Notes under the pieces: generated by a model | The model's input: the letters and a program-made list of their open reading frames with translations, nothing else | Told to the model about the DNA's origin: nothing | Database searches by the model: none | In this document: one piece after another, positions 4,955 through 26,666 of the stretch | How positions within the stretch are numbered: position 1 is the stretch's first letter | Layout: every line of letters starts with the position of its first letter | Position numbers and translations under genes: made by a program | NCBI GenBank assembly: GCA_964649615.1 | Contig: CAZYPW010000005.1 | Location: 41,387 to 94,124, forward strand | Length of the DNA: 52,738 nucleotides | Direction: 5' to 3' | Source of the DNA: an uncultured Gammaproteobacteria bacterium | Lineage (GTDB): Bacteria; Patescibacteriota; Microgenomatia; Daviesbacterales; UBA10151

Positions 4955-5369
4955 AATCTCAAATCTGAGATCTTAAATGTCAAATCTACATCTAAAATCT
5001 CAAAACTTCTTCCTCCCTTTTAAAGTTAATACACTTGATCCTAACATATTGCTTATTTCGTTAGCCTCTAAGAGTAATTCCGCACATTCTGTTTTTAAAT
5101 TAGGATAAGAATCTCTCAATAGACAAATCCAATACTTAGTCTCATTAGCAGATTTTAAATCTATTTCATAAAATTTGATGAAATCTTTCCTGCTTGAAGC
5201 TGCTTGAGCTTCTATCATATTTGCTCCAATAGACCAGAAAGCCCTTTTATCAGGTAAATTATTCACAAAACTAATAATCTCTAAAGAAAATCTATAAGCA
5301 CGTAACTTTACATCATTAGATTTTAGATTTGAATTGTAGTTTTGCGTTTTGCGTTTTGAGTTTTGAGAT
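4955..5369 (-). mobile_element. Putative full mini-element: heptamer arms (4955-5008, 5321-5369) enclosing a four-helix-bundle gene
   Basis: Arms match the two halves of ORF-less palindromes at 43363-43465, 48829-48930 and 30366-30474; mobility is inferred. Confidence 0.6.
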
Positions 5370-5374
5370 ATCAT
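5000..5374 (-). CDS. Four helix bundle protein (TIGR02436 / 23S rRNA IVP family), probably internally deleted
   Basis: SIGANMIEAQAASSRKDFIKFYEIDLKSANETKYW family motif; ATG 5374 overlaps the atpA stop (ATGA). Confidence 0.85.
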   Translation of the reverse strand: MISQNSKRKTQNYNSNLKSNDVKLRAYRFSLEIISFVNNLPDKRAFWSIGANMIEAQAASSRKDFIKFYEIDLKSANETKYWICLLRDSYPNLKTECAELLLEANEISNMLGSSVLTLKGRKKF

Positions 5375-6822
5375 GGGCATAATTTGGCCAAGACTGGCTT
5401 GACTCCTTCTAACATTTTAATTAGTTCATCATCAGTATCAACTTTACTGTAAGTTTTAGCAATCTCTATTAGTTGAGGTTCCTCCAAAAAGGCCTTAACT
5501 AGAACTTTTTTGTATTTTTCCATAAACTCTTTGCTTTTATCCTGGAAAAAGGTGGTGAAAGGAAGCGCTAAAAGGGCTACTTGGATGCCTTTGGGGATGG
5601 GGGTGAAGGGTTCTTGTTTTAACACTTCCAAGATCAAATCTCTTCTTTTTAAAATCAGTTGGGTTTCAGGAGATAATTCTGAGGAAAATCTGGCAATGGT
5701 CTCTAAATCTGCTGCAGCAGACAAAACCTGCCTCACTCTTGTTGAGAGCAAATTTGAAACCTGCTCCTGAGTTTGCCTTCCCACCCTGGAAACAGAGAGT
5801 GAAATATCAATAGCTGGGGTTTGGCCTTGGGATCTCATAGAGGCTTTAAACAACAGATGGCCATCTGTCATAGACATGAGATTGGTGGGAATAAAGGTGG
5901 TAAAATCATTTAAATTTAATTCAATCGCAGGCAGGGCAGTGATTGAACCTCCACCAAAAGCTTTTAAAAAATTCCCTGCCCTCTCCAAGAGATGTGCATG
6001 CTGGTAAAAGATGTCTCCAGGGTAAGATTCCCTTCCCGGGGCCTTATTACCAAGCAGGGCAATTTCCCTATAAATTTTAGCATGGGCTCCTAAATCATCT
6101 AAAATCAAAAGGACATCATGGCCTTTTTTTTGAAAATATTCAGCTACTGAAAAAGCTGTTTTAGGAGTTAAAAAAATTAAAGGAGCAGGTTCAGAAGAGG
6201 AGGTAGCTATCACAATAGTGTAATATAGGGCTCCATTAGCAGCCAGCACATCTATTAAATTTCTCACACTCACTGCTGGCTTGCCTATTGAAGCATATAT
6301 ACAAACCACTCCAGTCCCTTTTTGATTAATGATAATGTCAATTAGAAACTGAGTTTTACCAGAGTGGGCATCTCCCATAATCAGCTCCCTTTGCCCCAAT
6401 CCTATGGGAATAATGGTATCAATTACAGTAATGCCAGTTAAAAATTGCTCATGAATATATTCTCTGCTTTCAATTCCAGGCGCACTTCTTTCCAGCTCTA
6501 AAATCTGGACATTTTTGGAGTTGGTTAAAGGTCCTTTGCCATCAATTGGCAGCCCTAGTGGATTAATGCTTCTGGTCAATAGAAATTCACCAACTGGAAT
6601 GCCCAGGCGGTTAGGCAGTCTTTTAAAGGTTTGGCCTGGTTCAATTTTAGCCTCATCAAGCATTAAAACCTCAATAGAAGTTTCAGATAGGGAATTAACC
6701 CAGCCCCGAGCCCCATTATCTGCCTCAACCATGTCGTTAATGCGTACAGTAGGCAGCCCATCTACATGGACCAGGAAATCCCGGACAGATACAGCAAAAC
6801 CAACTTCTTGCCCATTATTCAT
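5371..6822 (-). CDS. atpA: F1 ATPase alpha subunit
   Basis: GQRELIMGDAHSGKT, PGRESYPGDIFYQHAHLLERA, ISLSVSRVG. Confidence 0.95.
   Translation of the reverse strand: MNNGQEVGFAVSVRDFLVHVDGLPTVRINDMVEADNGARGWVNSLSETSIEVLMLDEAKIEPGQTFKRLPNRLGIPVGEFLLTRSINPLGLPIDGKGPLTNSKNVQILELERSAPGIESREYIHEQFLTGITVIDTIIPIGLGQRELIMGDAHSGKTQFLIDIIINQKGTGVVCIYASIGKPAVSVRNLIDVLAANGALYYTIVIATSSSEPAPLIFLTPKTAFSVAEYFQKKGHDVLLILDDLGAHAKIYREIALLGNKAPGRESYPGDIFYQHAHLLERAGNFLKAFGGGSITALPAIELNLNDFTTFIPTNLMSMTDGHLLFKASMRSQGQTPAIDISLSVSRVGRQTQEQVSNLLSTRVRQVLSAAADLETIARFSSELSPETQLILKRRDLILEVLKQEPFTPIPKGIQVALLALPFTTFFQDKSKEFMEKYKKVLVKAFLEEPQLIEIAKTYSKVDTDDELIKMLEGVKPVLAKLCP

Positions 6823-8077: not shown

Positions 8078-8080
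<3 letters not shown>
8005..8080. repeat. Heptamer-repeat palindrome upstream of atpF
   Basis: aagtttaaagtgtaaaatgcaaagtgtaaaat ... aattttgatttttgatttttgattt. Confidence 0.8.
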
Positions 8081-8950
<870 letters not shown>

Positions 8951-9016
8951 CTACTTTTATATCAATAGCTCAAAATATATAAAAGCTCATCAATATAATT
9001 ACCGCAGGAGCTTAAG

Positions 9017-9050
9017 TTAGGGGTATAGGGTATAGGGTTAGGATTTAGGC
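9017..9050. repeat. Heptamer tandem repeat (TAGGGTA)
   Basis: gttagggtatagggtatagggttaggatttagg. Confidence 0.65.
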
Positions 9051-9129
9051 TGGATCAGAATATATATTAAGTATATCAATTATAACTAAGATGAATTTCA
9101 ATTAGCTTGTGAAAAGAAGGTGTGAAACG

Positions 9130-9232
9130 GTATTAGGTAGTATATATTAAGTATTATGGGAAGATAAGATTTAAACCTTTTAGACGAAGTCGCAAGCTTC
9201 GCTTAATACCTAATACTTGATACTTAATACTT
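9130..9232. repeat. Heptamer palindrome (AGTATTA/TAATACT) enclosing a 42-bp dispersed repeat
   Basis: gtattagg..attaagtatta ... taatacctaatacttgatacttaatact; 9168-9209 matches 26625-26666 at 40/42. Confidence 0.75.
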
Positions 9233-9278
9233 GTTCAGTAGATTGAACGAGCTCGTATCTTATGCTAAGATCGAAGTT

Positions 9279-11819
9279 ATGAAGAAGTATATACCTAACC
9301 AAATTGAGCCTAAATGGCAGAAAAAGTGGAGAGAAGGTGCTCTCTATTTAACCAATTTATCCAAAAATGATAATAAATATTATGTTTTAGTTGAGCTGCC
9401 TTATACTTCGGGGGATCTTCATATGGGGCACTGGTTTACCTTCACCATGGGTGATATCTTGGCTAGATTCAAAAAAAGACAGGGGTTCAATGTGCTTTTC
9501 CCGATCGGATTTGATGCATTTGGCTTGCCAGCAGAGAATGCTGCAATTAAGCAAAACATTCATCCAAGAGACTGGACTTATGGCAATATTGAGCGTATGA
9601 GAACTCAATTTGAAACTTTAGGAGCCTCGATGGATTGGACTAAAACCATGGTGGCTTGTGATCCTAAATACTACAAATGGAATCAATGGATCTTCTTAAA
9701 GATGCTAGAGCAGGGTAGCACTTATAGAGGTAGAGCGCTATCAAACTGGTGTCCTAACTGCCAGACAGTACTGGCCAATGAGAATGTAGAATTAGGCAGA
9801 TGCTGGAGGTGCGGCACAGAGGTAATTACCAAAGAAATAGAACAGTGGTTTTTTAAGATCACAGACTATGCCGAAAAATTACTTTGGCCAGAATCACCAA
9901 AAGTAGATTGGCCCAAGCATTTAAGAGAAGGTCAAAATAATTGGATAGGTAAGTCAGAAGGTGTAATTTATCGTTTCAAAGTAAAAGATATGAATATTTA
10001 CTTTGAAATGTTTGATTCTGTGCCCCAAACATTTATGGCTCAAACGTTTACAGTTATTGCTCCTGAACATCCTAAACTCTACGAGTTAGTAAAAGGCACT
10101 AAATACGAGAAAAAAGTGATGAATTTTGTCGACAAGATCAGAAGAAAGAAAGCTGCTGATAAATTTGAAGCCGATAAGGAAGTGGAAGGCGTATTTACCG
10201 GTAGGTATATAGAATATACTCCAACAGGACAGAATATTCCTTTGTGGGTAGCGTCGTTCGTTATAGCCGAATATGGTACAGGAGTTGTTAATTCCAGTGC
10301 ACACGACGAGCGTGATTTTGCCTTTGCCAAAAAGTATGACTTGCCACTGCATCCGGTTATGTTTCCGTCTGATCCAGTTGAGGCCAAGAAGGTCAGAAAT
10401 TTGGAATATTGTTACCATCATGCACCAGATGGTATCTTGCAAGAACCGGCAGAATTTAAAGGTAGAAAATGGGCAGGAGTAAGAGCAGACATTATTGATT
10501 ATATTGAAAAAAAAGGCTTTGGCAAAAGGGCCATCCAGTATCATCTTCACGATTGGTCAATCTCTAGACAAAGATATTGGGGGACACCCATTCCCATTAT
10601 TTATTGTGATAAGTGTGGGACAGTACCTGTGCCGGAAAAAGATTTACCAGTGGAGCTGCCTTATAAGGTTGACTATGCTCCCCAAGGTAAGCCCCCTCTG
10701 GCTACGGCAGAGGATTGGGTGAATGTAGAGTGCCCTAAGTGTGGTGGGCCAGCCAAAAGAGAAGTGGAAACTATGGATACTTTTGTTGATTCAGCCTGGT
10801 ACTTCTTTAGGTATTTAGATCCTGAAAATGATCAACAGATCTTTGATAAAAAGGTAGTAAAAGATTGGATGCCACTAGAGATCTATATTGGGGGGCCGGA
10901 ACATACCTTGGGACATGCCTTGTATTCCAGATTCTTTACCATGATCTTTCATGATTTAGGACTGATTAATTTTGATGAGTATGCTAAAAAGAGGATACAC
11001 CACGGTACAATTTTAGGTCCTGATGGCTCTAGAATGAGCAAGTCCAGAGGGAATGTGGTTAATCCTGATGAGGAGGTTAAAAATTATGGGGCAGATGCTA
11101 TCAGAGTTTATCTGATGTTTTTAGGCCCTTTTGACATTGTTACTTCTTGGAACCCCAATGGTGTCAATGGTGCCTATCATTTCCTACAACGTGTTTGGTC
11201 TCTCCGTGACAAATTACTTCCGATTGGACGTGGGCTCATCGCCCAAGAAAGTAGTTTGTCACAAGCTGACCTGAAAATGATACACAAGACTATTAAGAAG
11301 GTGACAGAAGATATTGAGGGACTTAAATACAACACAGCTATTGCCTCCCTCATGGAGTGGTTGAATCATTTATCTAAAAAAGAATCTATCAGTAAAGAAG
11401 AATATAAAACATTTTTATTACTACTTGCCCCATTCTCGCCCCATATTACAGAGGAACTGTGGGAAATTGTTAATCGTGAATCGTCTATCGTATATCGGAA
11501 AAATAAAAACGATAAGCAAAGCTTGCGATCTAACGATCTAAAACGACAAACGATAAACGACAAACGAAATTGGTCTATACATAAGCAGTTGTGGCCACAG
11601 TTTGATAAAAAATATCTGGAAGAAGAGGAGATAGTTATCATAGTTCAGATTAATGGTAAGGTGAGAGACAGCATCATGATACAAAAAGATATAATAAATA
11701 ACAAAGAGGATATAGAAAAATTTGCCAAACAAGCTGCAAATGCTAAGAAGTACTTAGCAGGAAAAACTGTGAAAAAAGTTGTGTATGTAGAAGGTAAGGT
11801 AATAAATTTTGTTATTTAG
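9279..11819 (+). CDS. leuS: Leucine--tRNA ligase
   Basis: HMGH and RMSKS motifs, zinc knuckles, editing-domain HDERD; ATG 9279 preferred. Confidence 0.97.
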   Translation: MKKYIPNQIEPKWQKKWREGALYLTNLSKNDNKYYVLVELPYTSGDLHMGHWFTFTMGDILARFKKRQGFNVLFPIGFDAFGLPAENAAIKQNIHPRDWTYGNIERMRTQFETLGASMDWTKTMVACDPKYYKWNQWIFLKMLEQGSTYRGRALSNWCPNCQTVLANENVELGRCWRCGTEVITKEIEQWFFKITDYAEKLLWPESPKVDWPKHLREGQNNWIGKSEGVIYRFKVKDMNIYFEMFDSVPQTFMAQTFTVIAPEHPKLYELVKGTKYEKKVMNFVDKIRRKKAADKFEADKEVEGVFTGRYIEYTPTGQNIPLWVASFVIAEYGTGVVNSSAHDERDFAFAKKYDLPLHPVMFPSDPVEAKKVRNLEYCYHHAPDGILQEPAEFKGRKWAGVRADIIDYIEKKGFGKRAIQYHLHDWSISRQRYWGTPIPIIYCDKCGTVPVPEKDLPVELPYKVDYAPQGKPPLATAEDWVNVECPKCGGPAKREVETMDTFVDSAWYFFRYLDPENDQQIFDKKVVKDWMPLEIYIGGPEHTLGHALYSRFFTMIFHDLGLINFDEYAKKRIHHGTILGPDGSRMSKSRGNVVNPDEEVKNYGADAIRVYLMFLGPFDIVTSWNPNGVNGAYHFLQRVWSLRDKLLPIGRGLIAQESSLSQADLKMIHKTIKKVTEDIEGLKYNTAIASLMEWLNHLSKKESISKEEYKTFLLLLAPFSPHITEELWEIVNRESSIVYRKNKNDKQSLRSNDLKRQTINDKRNWSIHKQLWPQFDKKYLEEEEIVIIVQINGKVRDSIMIQKDIINNKEDIEKFAKQAANAKKYLAGKTVKKVVYVEGKVINFVI
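11471..11568. repeat. In-frame heptamer palindrome inside leuS
   Basis: taatcgtgaatcgtctatcgtatatcgg ... aaacgacaaacgataaacgacaaacga. Confidence 0.85.
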
Positions 11820-11870
11820 CAGCGATCTATTTTGTCTGCTAAAGATTAATCATTGTTGATTTAGATTGTT

Positions 11871-12305
11871 ATGACAAGTAAATCAAAAGCTGCCCTAAAT
11901 AGAGACAATTCCTGGCTTTTAGCAAGGTTAGATTTTATTTGGACAAAATATTTTACTGAGGTTCCCCAAACAAATAAAGTCTTTATTAAATTTGGCAGAA
12001 ATGCCAGGTTAAGGCTTGGTTCAATTCGCTTAGATAGAAAAACTAAAGCCAGCTATATACTGATAACTTCAATGTTTAAAGAGCAATCAATCCCACAAGA
12101 GGTAGTGGATCACACCATTGGCCATGAGTTGGTGCATTATGCTCATGGTTTCTCTTCCAACAGGCCCAGATTGCACAAATATCCACACTCAGGAGGAGTA
12201 GTTAAAAAGGAGATGGCAGAGCGGGGAATGGAATATCTATATAAAGCTTATAAGGCTTGGATAAAAGACTATCGAAAAATGCTAAAAAAGTCATATGGAT
12301 TTTGA
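11871..12305 (+). CDS. SprT-like/zincin HExxH protein
   Basis: TIGHELVHYAHG motif. Confidence 0.65.
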   Translation: MTSKSKAALNRDNSWLLARLDFIWTKYFTEVPQTNKVFIKFGRNARLRLGSIRLDRKTKASYILITSMFKEQSIPQEVVDHTIGHELVHYAHGFSSNRPRLHKYPHSGGVVKKEMAERGMEYLYKAYKAWIKDYRKMLKKSYGF

Positions 12306-20710: not shown

Positions 20711-20911
20711 GCCGTTGTAGCTCACCGGATAAGCGGAGCTTGCAAAATTGGCCCTGTAGCTCAGTGGATAGAGCAATCCCGTCCTAAGGGAGAGGTCGTG
20801 AGTTCGACTCTCGCCAGGGCCGCCAATTTTGTAGAGCAACCCGTCCTTCTCCGCCAAAGGCGGAGGGTGTGTTAGGGGTAGGTTGGAGGTTCGATTCCTC
20901 TCAACGGCGCC
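20711..20911 (+). other. Interrupted outer tRNA-like gene (probably Arg-derived) enclosing tRNA-Arg(CCT)
   Basis: GCCGTTG (20711) pairs with CAACGGC (20902); canonical T-arm GGAGG-TTCGATT-CCTCT; the D-loop and anticodon loop both carry insertions. Confidence 0.65.
20750..20825 (+). tRNA. tRNA-Arg(CCT)
   Basis: GGCCCTG/CAGGGCC stem, GGATA D-loop, CCT anticodon, TTCGACT T-loop, encoded CCA. Confidence 0.9.
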
Positions 20912-26624: not shown

Positions 26625-26666
26625 GATTTAAACCCTTTAGACGAAGTCGCAAACTTCGCTTAATAC
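26625..26666. repeat. 42-bp dispersed repeat, copy 2
   Basis: gatttaaaccctttagacgaagtcgcaaacttcgcttaatac; compare 9168-9209. Confidence 0.8.

Follow-up and report, generated by a model that had tools for sequence, protein, structure and literature searches.

An in-frame heptamer-array hairpin with a nested 34-nt module in the leucyl-tRNA synthetase hinge of a Candidatus Daviesbacteria genome

To our knowledge, palindromic repeats lying in frame within essential genes are textbook material only for Rickettsia. The Rickettsia palindromic elements (RPEs) are numbered RPE-1 to RPE-10 (Ogata et al. 2000, 2002, via PMC10969869). The subject of this report is an insert of about 30 codons in leuS, the gene for leucyl-tRNA synthetase (LeuRS), located on a 52,738-nt stretch of contig CAZYPW010000005.1 (assembly GCA_964649615.1), hereafter the window. 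The host belongs to Candidatus Daviesbacteria of the candidate phyla radiation (CPR), as judged from the relatives of its LeuRS. The insert is composed of two facing arrays of 7-nt units with a structured 34-nt module between them. It probably represents one copy of a repeat that is spread through the lineage at the nucleic-acid level; having landed in a hinge of the enzyme that permits insertion, it is read through, with selection filtering for reading frame, absence of stop codons, and hydrophilicity.

Several other classes of short repeat are relevant to this locus. REP/REPIN sequences are extragenic palindromes of 20-40 nt with a fixed sequence, clustered around a RAYT (Y1) gene. The intervening sequences of 23S rRNA may carry an S23p (PF05635) gene, and cyanobacteria possess the STRR heptamers. 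The small dispersed repeats (SDRs) of heterocystous cyanobacteria, which Elhai et al. are said to have described in 2008, are reportedly structured sequences of ~21-30 nt that are nested in other repeats, including tandem heptamer arrays. TAACTGA heptanucleotide repeats are found in Beggiatoaceae, cyanobacteria, and Bacteroidetes (MacGregor 2015, PMC4679880). They are direct repeats of one unit that lie mostly upstream of start codons (PMC4679880).

LeuRS is encoded on the + strand at 9279..11819, with ATG 9279 (MKKYIPNQ) as the likely start of a frame that is open from TTG 9231. The product matches the Thermus thermophilus enzyme (1h3n) at E = 1.6e-215. The open reading frame (ORF) at 9231-11819 contains the Pfam domains tRNA-synt_1, LeuRS editing domain, and Anticodon_1, and the class I motifs HMGH and RMSKS (KMSKS-type) are kept. 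This is the only LeuRS match found in a six-frame search of the genome. An earlier note, made from the sequence of the window, had pointed to an insert of ~30 residues in the link between EELW and SIH, and the peptide that it quoted, EELW-EIVNRESSIVYRKNKNDKQSLRSNDLKRQTINDKRNW-SIHKQ, matches the translation of the ORF. The link occupies 37 codons at 11463..11573 (+), between TGG at 11460-11462 and SIH from 11574, and the canonical link of Daviesbacteria is 7 residues (xxLGEKY; 120 orthologues), for a net insert of ~90 nt or 30 residues. Against 1h3n, query residues 746-782 lie opposite just six residues (793-798), leaving ~31 extra. Upstream of the insert, the protein ends the anticodon-binding domain with its final helix (…PHITEELW); downstream of it comes the SIHxQxWP stretch that leads into the C-terminal domain, which in bacterial LeuRS has a tRNA-binding role.

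The facing arrays of ATCG-type and AACGA-type heptamers that were proposed to encode the insert are borne out by tandem-repeat, inverted-repeat, and spacing checks. The left arm (11472..11499, +) reads AATCGTG AATCGTC TATCGTA TATCGGA, with TCG four times at exact 7-nt spacing, and is translated as NRESSIVYR. An A-rich spacer, AAAATAAAAACG (11500..11511, +), follows and ends in an additional AAAAACGA-type unit. Next is the nested double-hairpin module ATAAGCAAAGCTTGCGATCTAACGATCTAAAACG (11512..11545, +). The right arm (11541..11567, +) reads AAACGAC AAACGAT AAACGAC AAACGAA and is translated as KRQTINDKR; Tandem Repeats Finder (TRF) reports it with period 7 (3.9 copies) and with period 14 (100% match), at scores of 47 and 54. 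Positions 11474-11497 and 11544-11567 constitute an inverted repeat of 24 nt with 75% complementarity. Pairing between the arms is limited to a core of 4-5 nt per unit, which makes the palindrome periodic and imperfect. Thus, the description of a heptamer palindrome holds for the facing arms, but the structure is imperfect, and composite, with the 34-nt structured module in its loop. The RNA fold of the insert is -23.7 kcal/mol (z = -2.8), and 1 of 200 shuffles is equally stable.

A 7-nt direct repeat, GAAATTG, brackets the insert. The left copy (11463..11469, +) supplies the E-I-V codons, and the right copy (11566..11572, +) is read in another frame and gives the N-W codons (AAT TGG) before SIH. 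The pair was not taken as a simple target-site duplication: the two copies are 103 nt apart, not a multiple of 3, and the right copy lies within a stretch that is also present in a second copy of the cassette at rplC/rplD. The pair is read as microhomology because the right copy belongs to that shared stretch.

The nested module consists of TAAGCAAAGCTTGCGA, a stem-loop, and TCTAAA. In the leuS copy, hairpin 1 is GCAA-AGC-TTGC and hairpin 2 is GATC-TAAC-GATC. Each strand of the module has a single stop-free frame, and LeuRS uses the one on its strand to read (D)KQSLRSNDLK(R). To assess the structure, 20 module copies taken from 11 genomes were aligned. In the two-hairpin structure, 93.5% of the cells are paired, vs at most 38.6% when the partners are slid, and both-sided changes occur in six cells of the alignment, a count that none of 500 shuffles reached. 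The pair 18-28 is UA in 10 copies, CG in 3, and GC in 2. One-sided changes in helix 1 are all A-to-G and are compatible with G.U pairing on the sense strand. A covariance model, R1, was built from 20 training sequences, and the leuS copy tops its search at 53.8 bits, a match that is partly by construction because this copy is among the training sequences. It has the core TAAGCAAAGCTTGCGA, the variable second hairpin, and the TCTAAA that define R1.

R1 detects 14 module copies in the genome at E < 3e-4, and these are mostly intercistronic. Copies of the module lie between the rplC stop and the rplD start, in frame in topA within a (GAATCAA)n array, and in several intergenic spacers. Across the class, the module is present in 20 of 121 sampled genomes, at 1-15 copies each, and in all six sampled genomes of the same family. 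Among 20 foreign copies, eight are sense-oriented within long ORFs, where they encode KQSLRSxxLK. Several foreign copies sit within heptamer arrays, one of which is TTAACGA. Foreign copies are sense in 15 cases and antisense in five, and in this genome the copies are co-oriented with their neighbors at ~8 to 3.

Other module copies and relatives lie in the window. The spacer between leuS and a minus-strand gene (8078-8950) contains an AAGTATT/AATACTT hairpin at 9134-9233 that also carries a module in its loop (9176-9206, -), ~70 nt upstream of the leuS start. In the nearest relative (L059), the hairpin of the syntenic spacer is built from another unit, ATTACTA/TAATTAG, and the module is absent. 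A module-like sequence, ATAAGCGGAGCTTGCAAAATT, at 20729-20750 adjoins the 5' end of a tRNA gene (20750-20822), with a weak R1 score (E = 0.86). An intergenic copy, TTAAGCGAAGTTTGCGACTTCGTCTAAAGGG, is located at 26633-26663 (-), with an R1 E-value of 1.7e-8.

The pieces of the leuS insert recur at a second locus, outside the window. In a blastn comparison, positions 22023-22144 of contig C7, between rplC and rplD, match the left arm over 24 nt at 96%, the right arm over 32 nt at 97%, and the module over 31 nt at 90%. At rplC/rplD the module is 5' of the left arm and not in the loop as at leuS. Because the same pieces occur in a different order, the arms and the module are separable, and the two loci are related by copying rather than by independent slippage. 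At C7:22016-22144, an ATG that overlaps the stop codon of rplC shares its reading frame with the module, the heptamer hairpin, and rplD. Judging from this open frame, ribosomal protein L4 probably has an N-terminal extension of ~43 residues derived from the cassette and read in the same frame as in LeuRS.

Heptamer arrays are abundant in this genome. In its 1.14 Mb there are 133 self-similar runs at lag 7, vs 4-11 at each other lag from 4 to 12. TCGT and ACGA have a genome frequency of only ~0.7 per kb; given this rarity and the genome-wide lag-7 excess, the heptamers of the insert exceed chance. The unit sequences number in the dozens (AAAAGTC, AAAACTC, AAGTATT, AACTACC, AACGATT, and others), and many occur in facing pairs. 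By a crude ORF map, 65 of 129 runs are well inside ORFs and 15 of 129 are near ORF ends. Hosts include TsaD, which Pfam splits in two, as well as DnaX, TopA, the L17 tail, and a GT4 glycosyltransferase. All 11 AACGAT-type runs are in long open frames and read LTINDKR or, on the opposite strand, RLSFIVN. Three perfect TAAACGA units would stop all frames, and the unit variants observed keep the frame open. The excess extends to the family: in the leuS surroundings from 29 other genera (102 kb), there are 21 lag-7 runs, vs 0-2 at other lags. Tandem 7-nt units are longer and commoner than chance on these counts. The DnaX of another genome (G018) has an AATCGT-type insert where this genome's DnaX has an AGTTC-type, and the position of the TsaD insert is common to G017 and this genome.

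Two further heptamer structures are found near leuS. Facing (GTTGGTA)x3 and AACTAAT-type arrays at 8822-8914 form an in-frame hairpin at the 5' end of the minus-strand ORF of 290 residues (8078-8950), whose product is a membrane or signal-peptide protein. Between atpG and atpA, a gene for a 126-residue 23S rRNA intervening-sequence protein (PF05635, Pfam E = 2.7e-14) at 5000-5380 (-) is bracketed by inverted heptamer arrays at ~4955-5005 and ~5320-5370. Since this gene lies between inverted arms, heptamer hairpins can carry cargo in their loops, even a whole gene.

The LeuRS hinge is a recurrent site of insertion across the family. The earlier note had called for an alignment of orthologues, and among the 120 compared, the link is the canonical 7 residues in 68 and longer, with mutually unrelated sequences, in 52. 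The longer links comprise 31 that are heptamer-like or other, 14 of an 'SFDFAQDKQNW' kind, and seven of a 'VILR…AQNDN' palindrome kind. The hinge is the most occupied insertion site in the protein, with at least 6 extra residues in 39 sequences, vs 20 and 14 at the next two sites. The inserts of relatives keep the 7-nt periodicity and have other units, such as (TCGTCAG)4 facing CTGAnAG, ATTCGTN facing (AAAAACG)4, AATTGAA facing TCAATTG, and ACAGTTC arrays. The two orthologues closest to this LeuRS, P0015 (88-89% identity) and P0012, keep the canonical link and have no insert. The syntenic contig of P0015 reads TCT GAC AAA GCT AGC TTG GGA GAA AAA TAC at the site; its spacers on either side of leuS contain heptamer hairpins built from other units. 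Because these two orthologues lack it, the insert is specific to the lineage of this genome; neither an ancestral insert nor a loss of periodicity in relatives was found.

On an orthologue tree built without the insert columns, the presence and absence of inserts needs 31 changes, 28 of which are forced by starred branches, and shuffled labels need 39. A single ancestral insert was rejected on the basis of these 31 changes and of the insert-free nearest orthologues. A tree built from the flanks only needs 32 changes and clusters the inserts no better, and so there is no sign of one recombining allele class behind the pattern. Elsewhere in the protein, palindrome-type peptides (VIPAEAGIH…AGMTN, RHPELVSGS…, and SEAVSEIAYPPSVGPKTPRN) occur at three further orthologue loops, after residues ~235, 370, and 649 in P0002 numbering, and a Nudix-like domain (PF00293) is inserted in three LeuRS orthologues.

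LeuRS is open without internal stops in 61 of 61 family genomes in a six-frame search, and all 13 insert-bearing leuS loci that were read at the DNA level are in frame. The insert was mapped onto an AlphaFold2 model made from a 92-sequence alignment (P0002 numbering; add 16 for the ORF from 9231). The model has a mean predicted local distance difference test (pLDDT) score of 89.1 and a predicted template modeling (pTM) score of 0.82. The insert is predicted as a protruding helical hairpin of low confidence, with blocks 731-740, 741-750, and 751-760 at pLDDT 70, 55, and 55; the other dips are just a few loops. It has 10 K+R vs 4 D+E in 34 residues. The net charge of heptamer inserts in orthologues ranges from -3 to +5 (mean -0.1), and no peptide property is therefore conserved. 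That the peptides LTINDKR and KQSLRSNDLK recur is a consequence of the sole stop-free frames of their DNA, and the peptides of orthologues at the LeuRS site are mutually unrelated. Because the inserts are in frame and stop-free and AlphaFold assigns low confidence to the segment, the insert is read as a translated, tolerated passenger. The earlier suggestion that an essential enzyme tolerates or removes the insert is upheld for tolerance, as the gene is single-copy with an open frame, but not for removal, as all inserts are in frame and stop-free.

The following mechanism probably accounts for the locus. The starting point is a hairpin of two facing imperfect heptamer arrays whose loop holds a 34-nt double-hairpin mini-element that is also dispersed on its own. 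The cassette would have arrived by copying from another hairpin locus and not by local slippage alone, and the route may have been gene conversion, template switching through microhomology, or a hairpin-directed insertion activity. Purifying selection would then retain only versions that preserve the frame, lack stops, and are hydrophilic. Translation would turn the repeat into a loop of ~30 residues, hydrophilic and with little order, with the enzyme staying functional and the insert peptide itself having no conserved function.

Other explanations account for parts of these data, and several observations weigh against a purely passive read-through copy. One alternative, which is unlikely, is that selection acts on the hairpin and module as a structure in RNA or single-stranded DNA, such as a processing or stability site, an interdomain pause, or a leader of the downstream genes, with the peptide as a by-product. 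The compensatory pairs in the module and the G.U-compatible A-to-G changes argue for this, as does the fold z-score of -2.8. These G.U-compatible changes and the 15:5 sense bias of the module hint at an RNA-level role. The mostly intercistronic position and co-orientation of module copies also favor a selected structure; one copy is directly upstream of a tRNA, and others are just upstream of the rplW or rplD starts. In addition, the hinge inserts of two genomes from different genera (G050 and G049; leuS loci L002 and L008) are 91% identical at the DNA level (104/114), vs 63% for the 600 nt upstream and 67% for the 280 nt downstream. This difference points to recent cassette spread or nucleic-acid selection and not to a purely neutral passenger. 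That cassette is multicopy, with matches in 28 of 61 family genomes and full-length copies of 88-96% identity elsewhere in three genera. Two further points are adverse. Trp stands directly before SIH in 39 of 45 heptamer or SFDF-type inserts; of the 68 canonical links, 46 end in Tyr and one in Trp. Moreover, between the leuS genes of two close relatives (L060 and L061), identity is 94-100% for the first 1.9 kb and only 71-82% for the last 0.55 kb. The break is ~200 nt upstream of the hinge, the hinge inserts differ, and the 34 nt after the insert (AATTGGTCCATACATCAGCAGTCTTGGCC…) are identical. Because of this mosaic, recombination adds to the scatter of inserts, and the count of independent gains is uncertain. 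We also infer translation of the insert from frame conservation only. Against a selected structure, the arms pair only at cores of 4-5 nt (75% complementary), the two nearest orthologues and 68 of 120 overall lack the insert, and at least three unrelated sequence types occur among hinge inserts. A scan of 8900-12000 for consensus promoters and terminators found nothing within the insert, and Rfam searches (gathering thresholds for the whole window; E-value thresholds for 8800-11900) found just two tRNAs and no match in the insert. The orientation bias is modest, and module copies inside ORFs are constrained by the single open frame per strand. As a separate observation, the right arm of the L002 and L008 inserts harbors a nested 28-nt GC-rich mini-hairpin, GCGAAGCCACGCCAAAGGCGGGCGAAGCG, and isolated copies of it at 97-100% identity are found in many family genomes, including this one (C5:11257-11285).

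The remaining alternatives concern the peptide, the origin of the DNA, and its fate. Eukaryotic synthetases have lysine-rich appended domains, and the excess of K and R in the insert, next to the tRNA-binding C-terminal domain, would suit an adaptive basic appendage that helps this domain hold tRNA-Leu. Such a role is very unlikely, since orthologue inserts are unrelated in sequence and length and near neutral in mean charge, the nearest orthologues have none, the pLDDT is low, and rplD reads the same DNA in the same frame, as TopA does the module. In-place replication slippage of a 7-nt unit would make the insert an ordinary long simple-sequence repeat, with no copying and no mobile element. 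Heptanucleotides are the commonest long simple-sequence repeats in many prokaryotes, as Mrazek 2007 is quoted in PMC4679880, and the right arm contains a perfect 14-nt duplication. Slippage as the whole explanation is nonetheless highly improbable: it cannot produce an inverted arm, the arms are 96-97% like those of the second locus, including the order of unit variants and the non-repeat ends, the loop holds a dispersed class-wide module, and complete cassettes are repeated, 88-96% identical, in other genera and at loci that are not linked. Finally, removal of the insert before the mature enzyme, by intron-like RNA excision, translational bypass, or an intein-like process, is scarcely credible. 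The hairpin potential, an analogy with bypass elements and rRNA intervening sequences, and the PF05635 gene between heptamer arms in the window would fit it. However, in 61 of 61 genomes the inserts have lengths divisible by 3 and contain no stops, a constraint that an excised sequence would not need to obey; 90 nt is below the size of group I or II introns and 30 residues below that of an intein, and there are no intein motifs and no Rfam match. A self-splicing intron, intein, or bypass element was rejected on these grounds.

It is possible, though doubtful, that an undescribed active process in Daviesbacteria or Microgenomatia writes, homogenizes, and exchanges heptamer hairpins at recurrent sites, intergenic as well as within essential genes. 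The loops would serve as landing pads for cargo, such as 30-nt mini-elements and S23p-type genes, and the LeuRS hinge, the DnaX zinc module, and the TsaD loop would be preferred sites. If so, the high conservation of insert DNA would reflect ongoing horizontal or intragenomic copying or a function of the hairpin at the RNA level.

Of the known systems, RPEs are the closest. Like RPEs as outlined in the cited source, the repeats described here are short, dispersed palindromes that lie in frame in unrelated housekeeping genes of a reduced genome and add fold-compatible peptides; in-frame copies are found in TsaD, DnaX, TopA, L17, GT4, and LeuRS. By the same account, RPEs form families of ~100-150 bp with conserved sequence and peptide, whereas here arrays of 7-nt units vary by copy and by genus. 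The same protein site being hit repeatedly, the nested smaller module, and the CPR host also differ from RPEs as described there. By analogy, the data support the view that the leuS insert behaves like an RPE. The resemblance to Rickettsia raised in the earlier note thus stands for the dispersed, in-frame occurrence in unrelated housekeeping genes, and no family membership is claimed, as host and unit structure differ by description.

The arrays fall within the wider class of heptanucleotide repeats. The TAACTGA heptanucleotide repeats share a genome-wide excess with these arrays, and they are mostly intergenic but also occur in ORFs in stop-free orientations and phases (PMC4679880). The arrays here have dozens of imperfect unit types, typically in two inverted arrays, with about half inside essential genes. 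The module resembles SDRs, as these are reported, in being very small, structured, and nested; it differs in sequence and lineage and is also translated in genes. Mobility of the module may be suggested by its variable position and wide distribution. Resemblance to REP sequences is limited to short hairpin repeats in a genome that also encodes Y1_Tnp proteins. There are three such genes (PF01797, IS200/RAYT-like), at C3:9321-9965, C2:80232-80972, and C6:61519-62226. The C3 gene is flanked on both sides by ACACCCCAAGGGTGT palindromes in a REPtron-like layout, and the 1.5 kb on either side of each of the three genes is free of heptamer arrays and modules. A REP/REPIN-RAYT system was rejected for the insert, which is intragenic with varying units, while the Y1 genes have a different palindrome or none and no heptamers nearby. 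Regarding miniature inverted-repeat transposable elements, the ends of the insert are inverted arrays and its direct repeat is the GAAATTG pair described above (103 nt apart; right copy shared with rplD). A blastn search of the element against the genome gave only short repeat copies and no related autonomous insertion sequence. The PF05635 gene of the window lies in a heptamer-armed loop, as the leuS copy carries the module in its loop, and this recalls 23S rRNA intervening sequences; unlike those, the leuS insert contains no gene, belongs to the coding part of an mRNA, and evidently escapes excision. No description of heptamer hairpins in CPR was found in the literature searched, and the combination of inverted arrays, unit diversity, protein hot spots, and a class-wide module is likewise undescribed there.

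This locus adds to the Rickettsia example a different architecture, heptamer-array hairpins with nested mini-hairpins, on a larger scale and in ultra-small CPR bacteria. Beyond what is known from Rickettsia, the hinge of one essential enzyme has been hit or rewritten dozens of times across a family, one unit type occurs in different host genes of different genera, and in one genus pair the insert DNA is better conserved than the surrounding gene. The inserts inflate protein lengths, break domain models (as in TsaD), and can mislead the annotation and phylogeny of CPR bacteria. Together, the features that go beyond Rickettsia point to a DNA or RNA process, particular to this lineage, by which both proteins and intergenic regions are shaped, and they bear on how new protein loops originate in reduced genomes.

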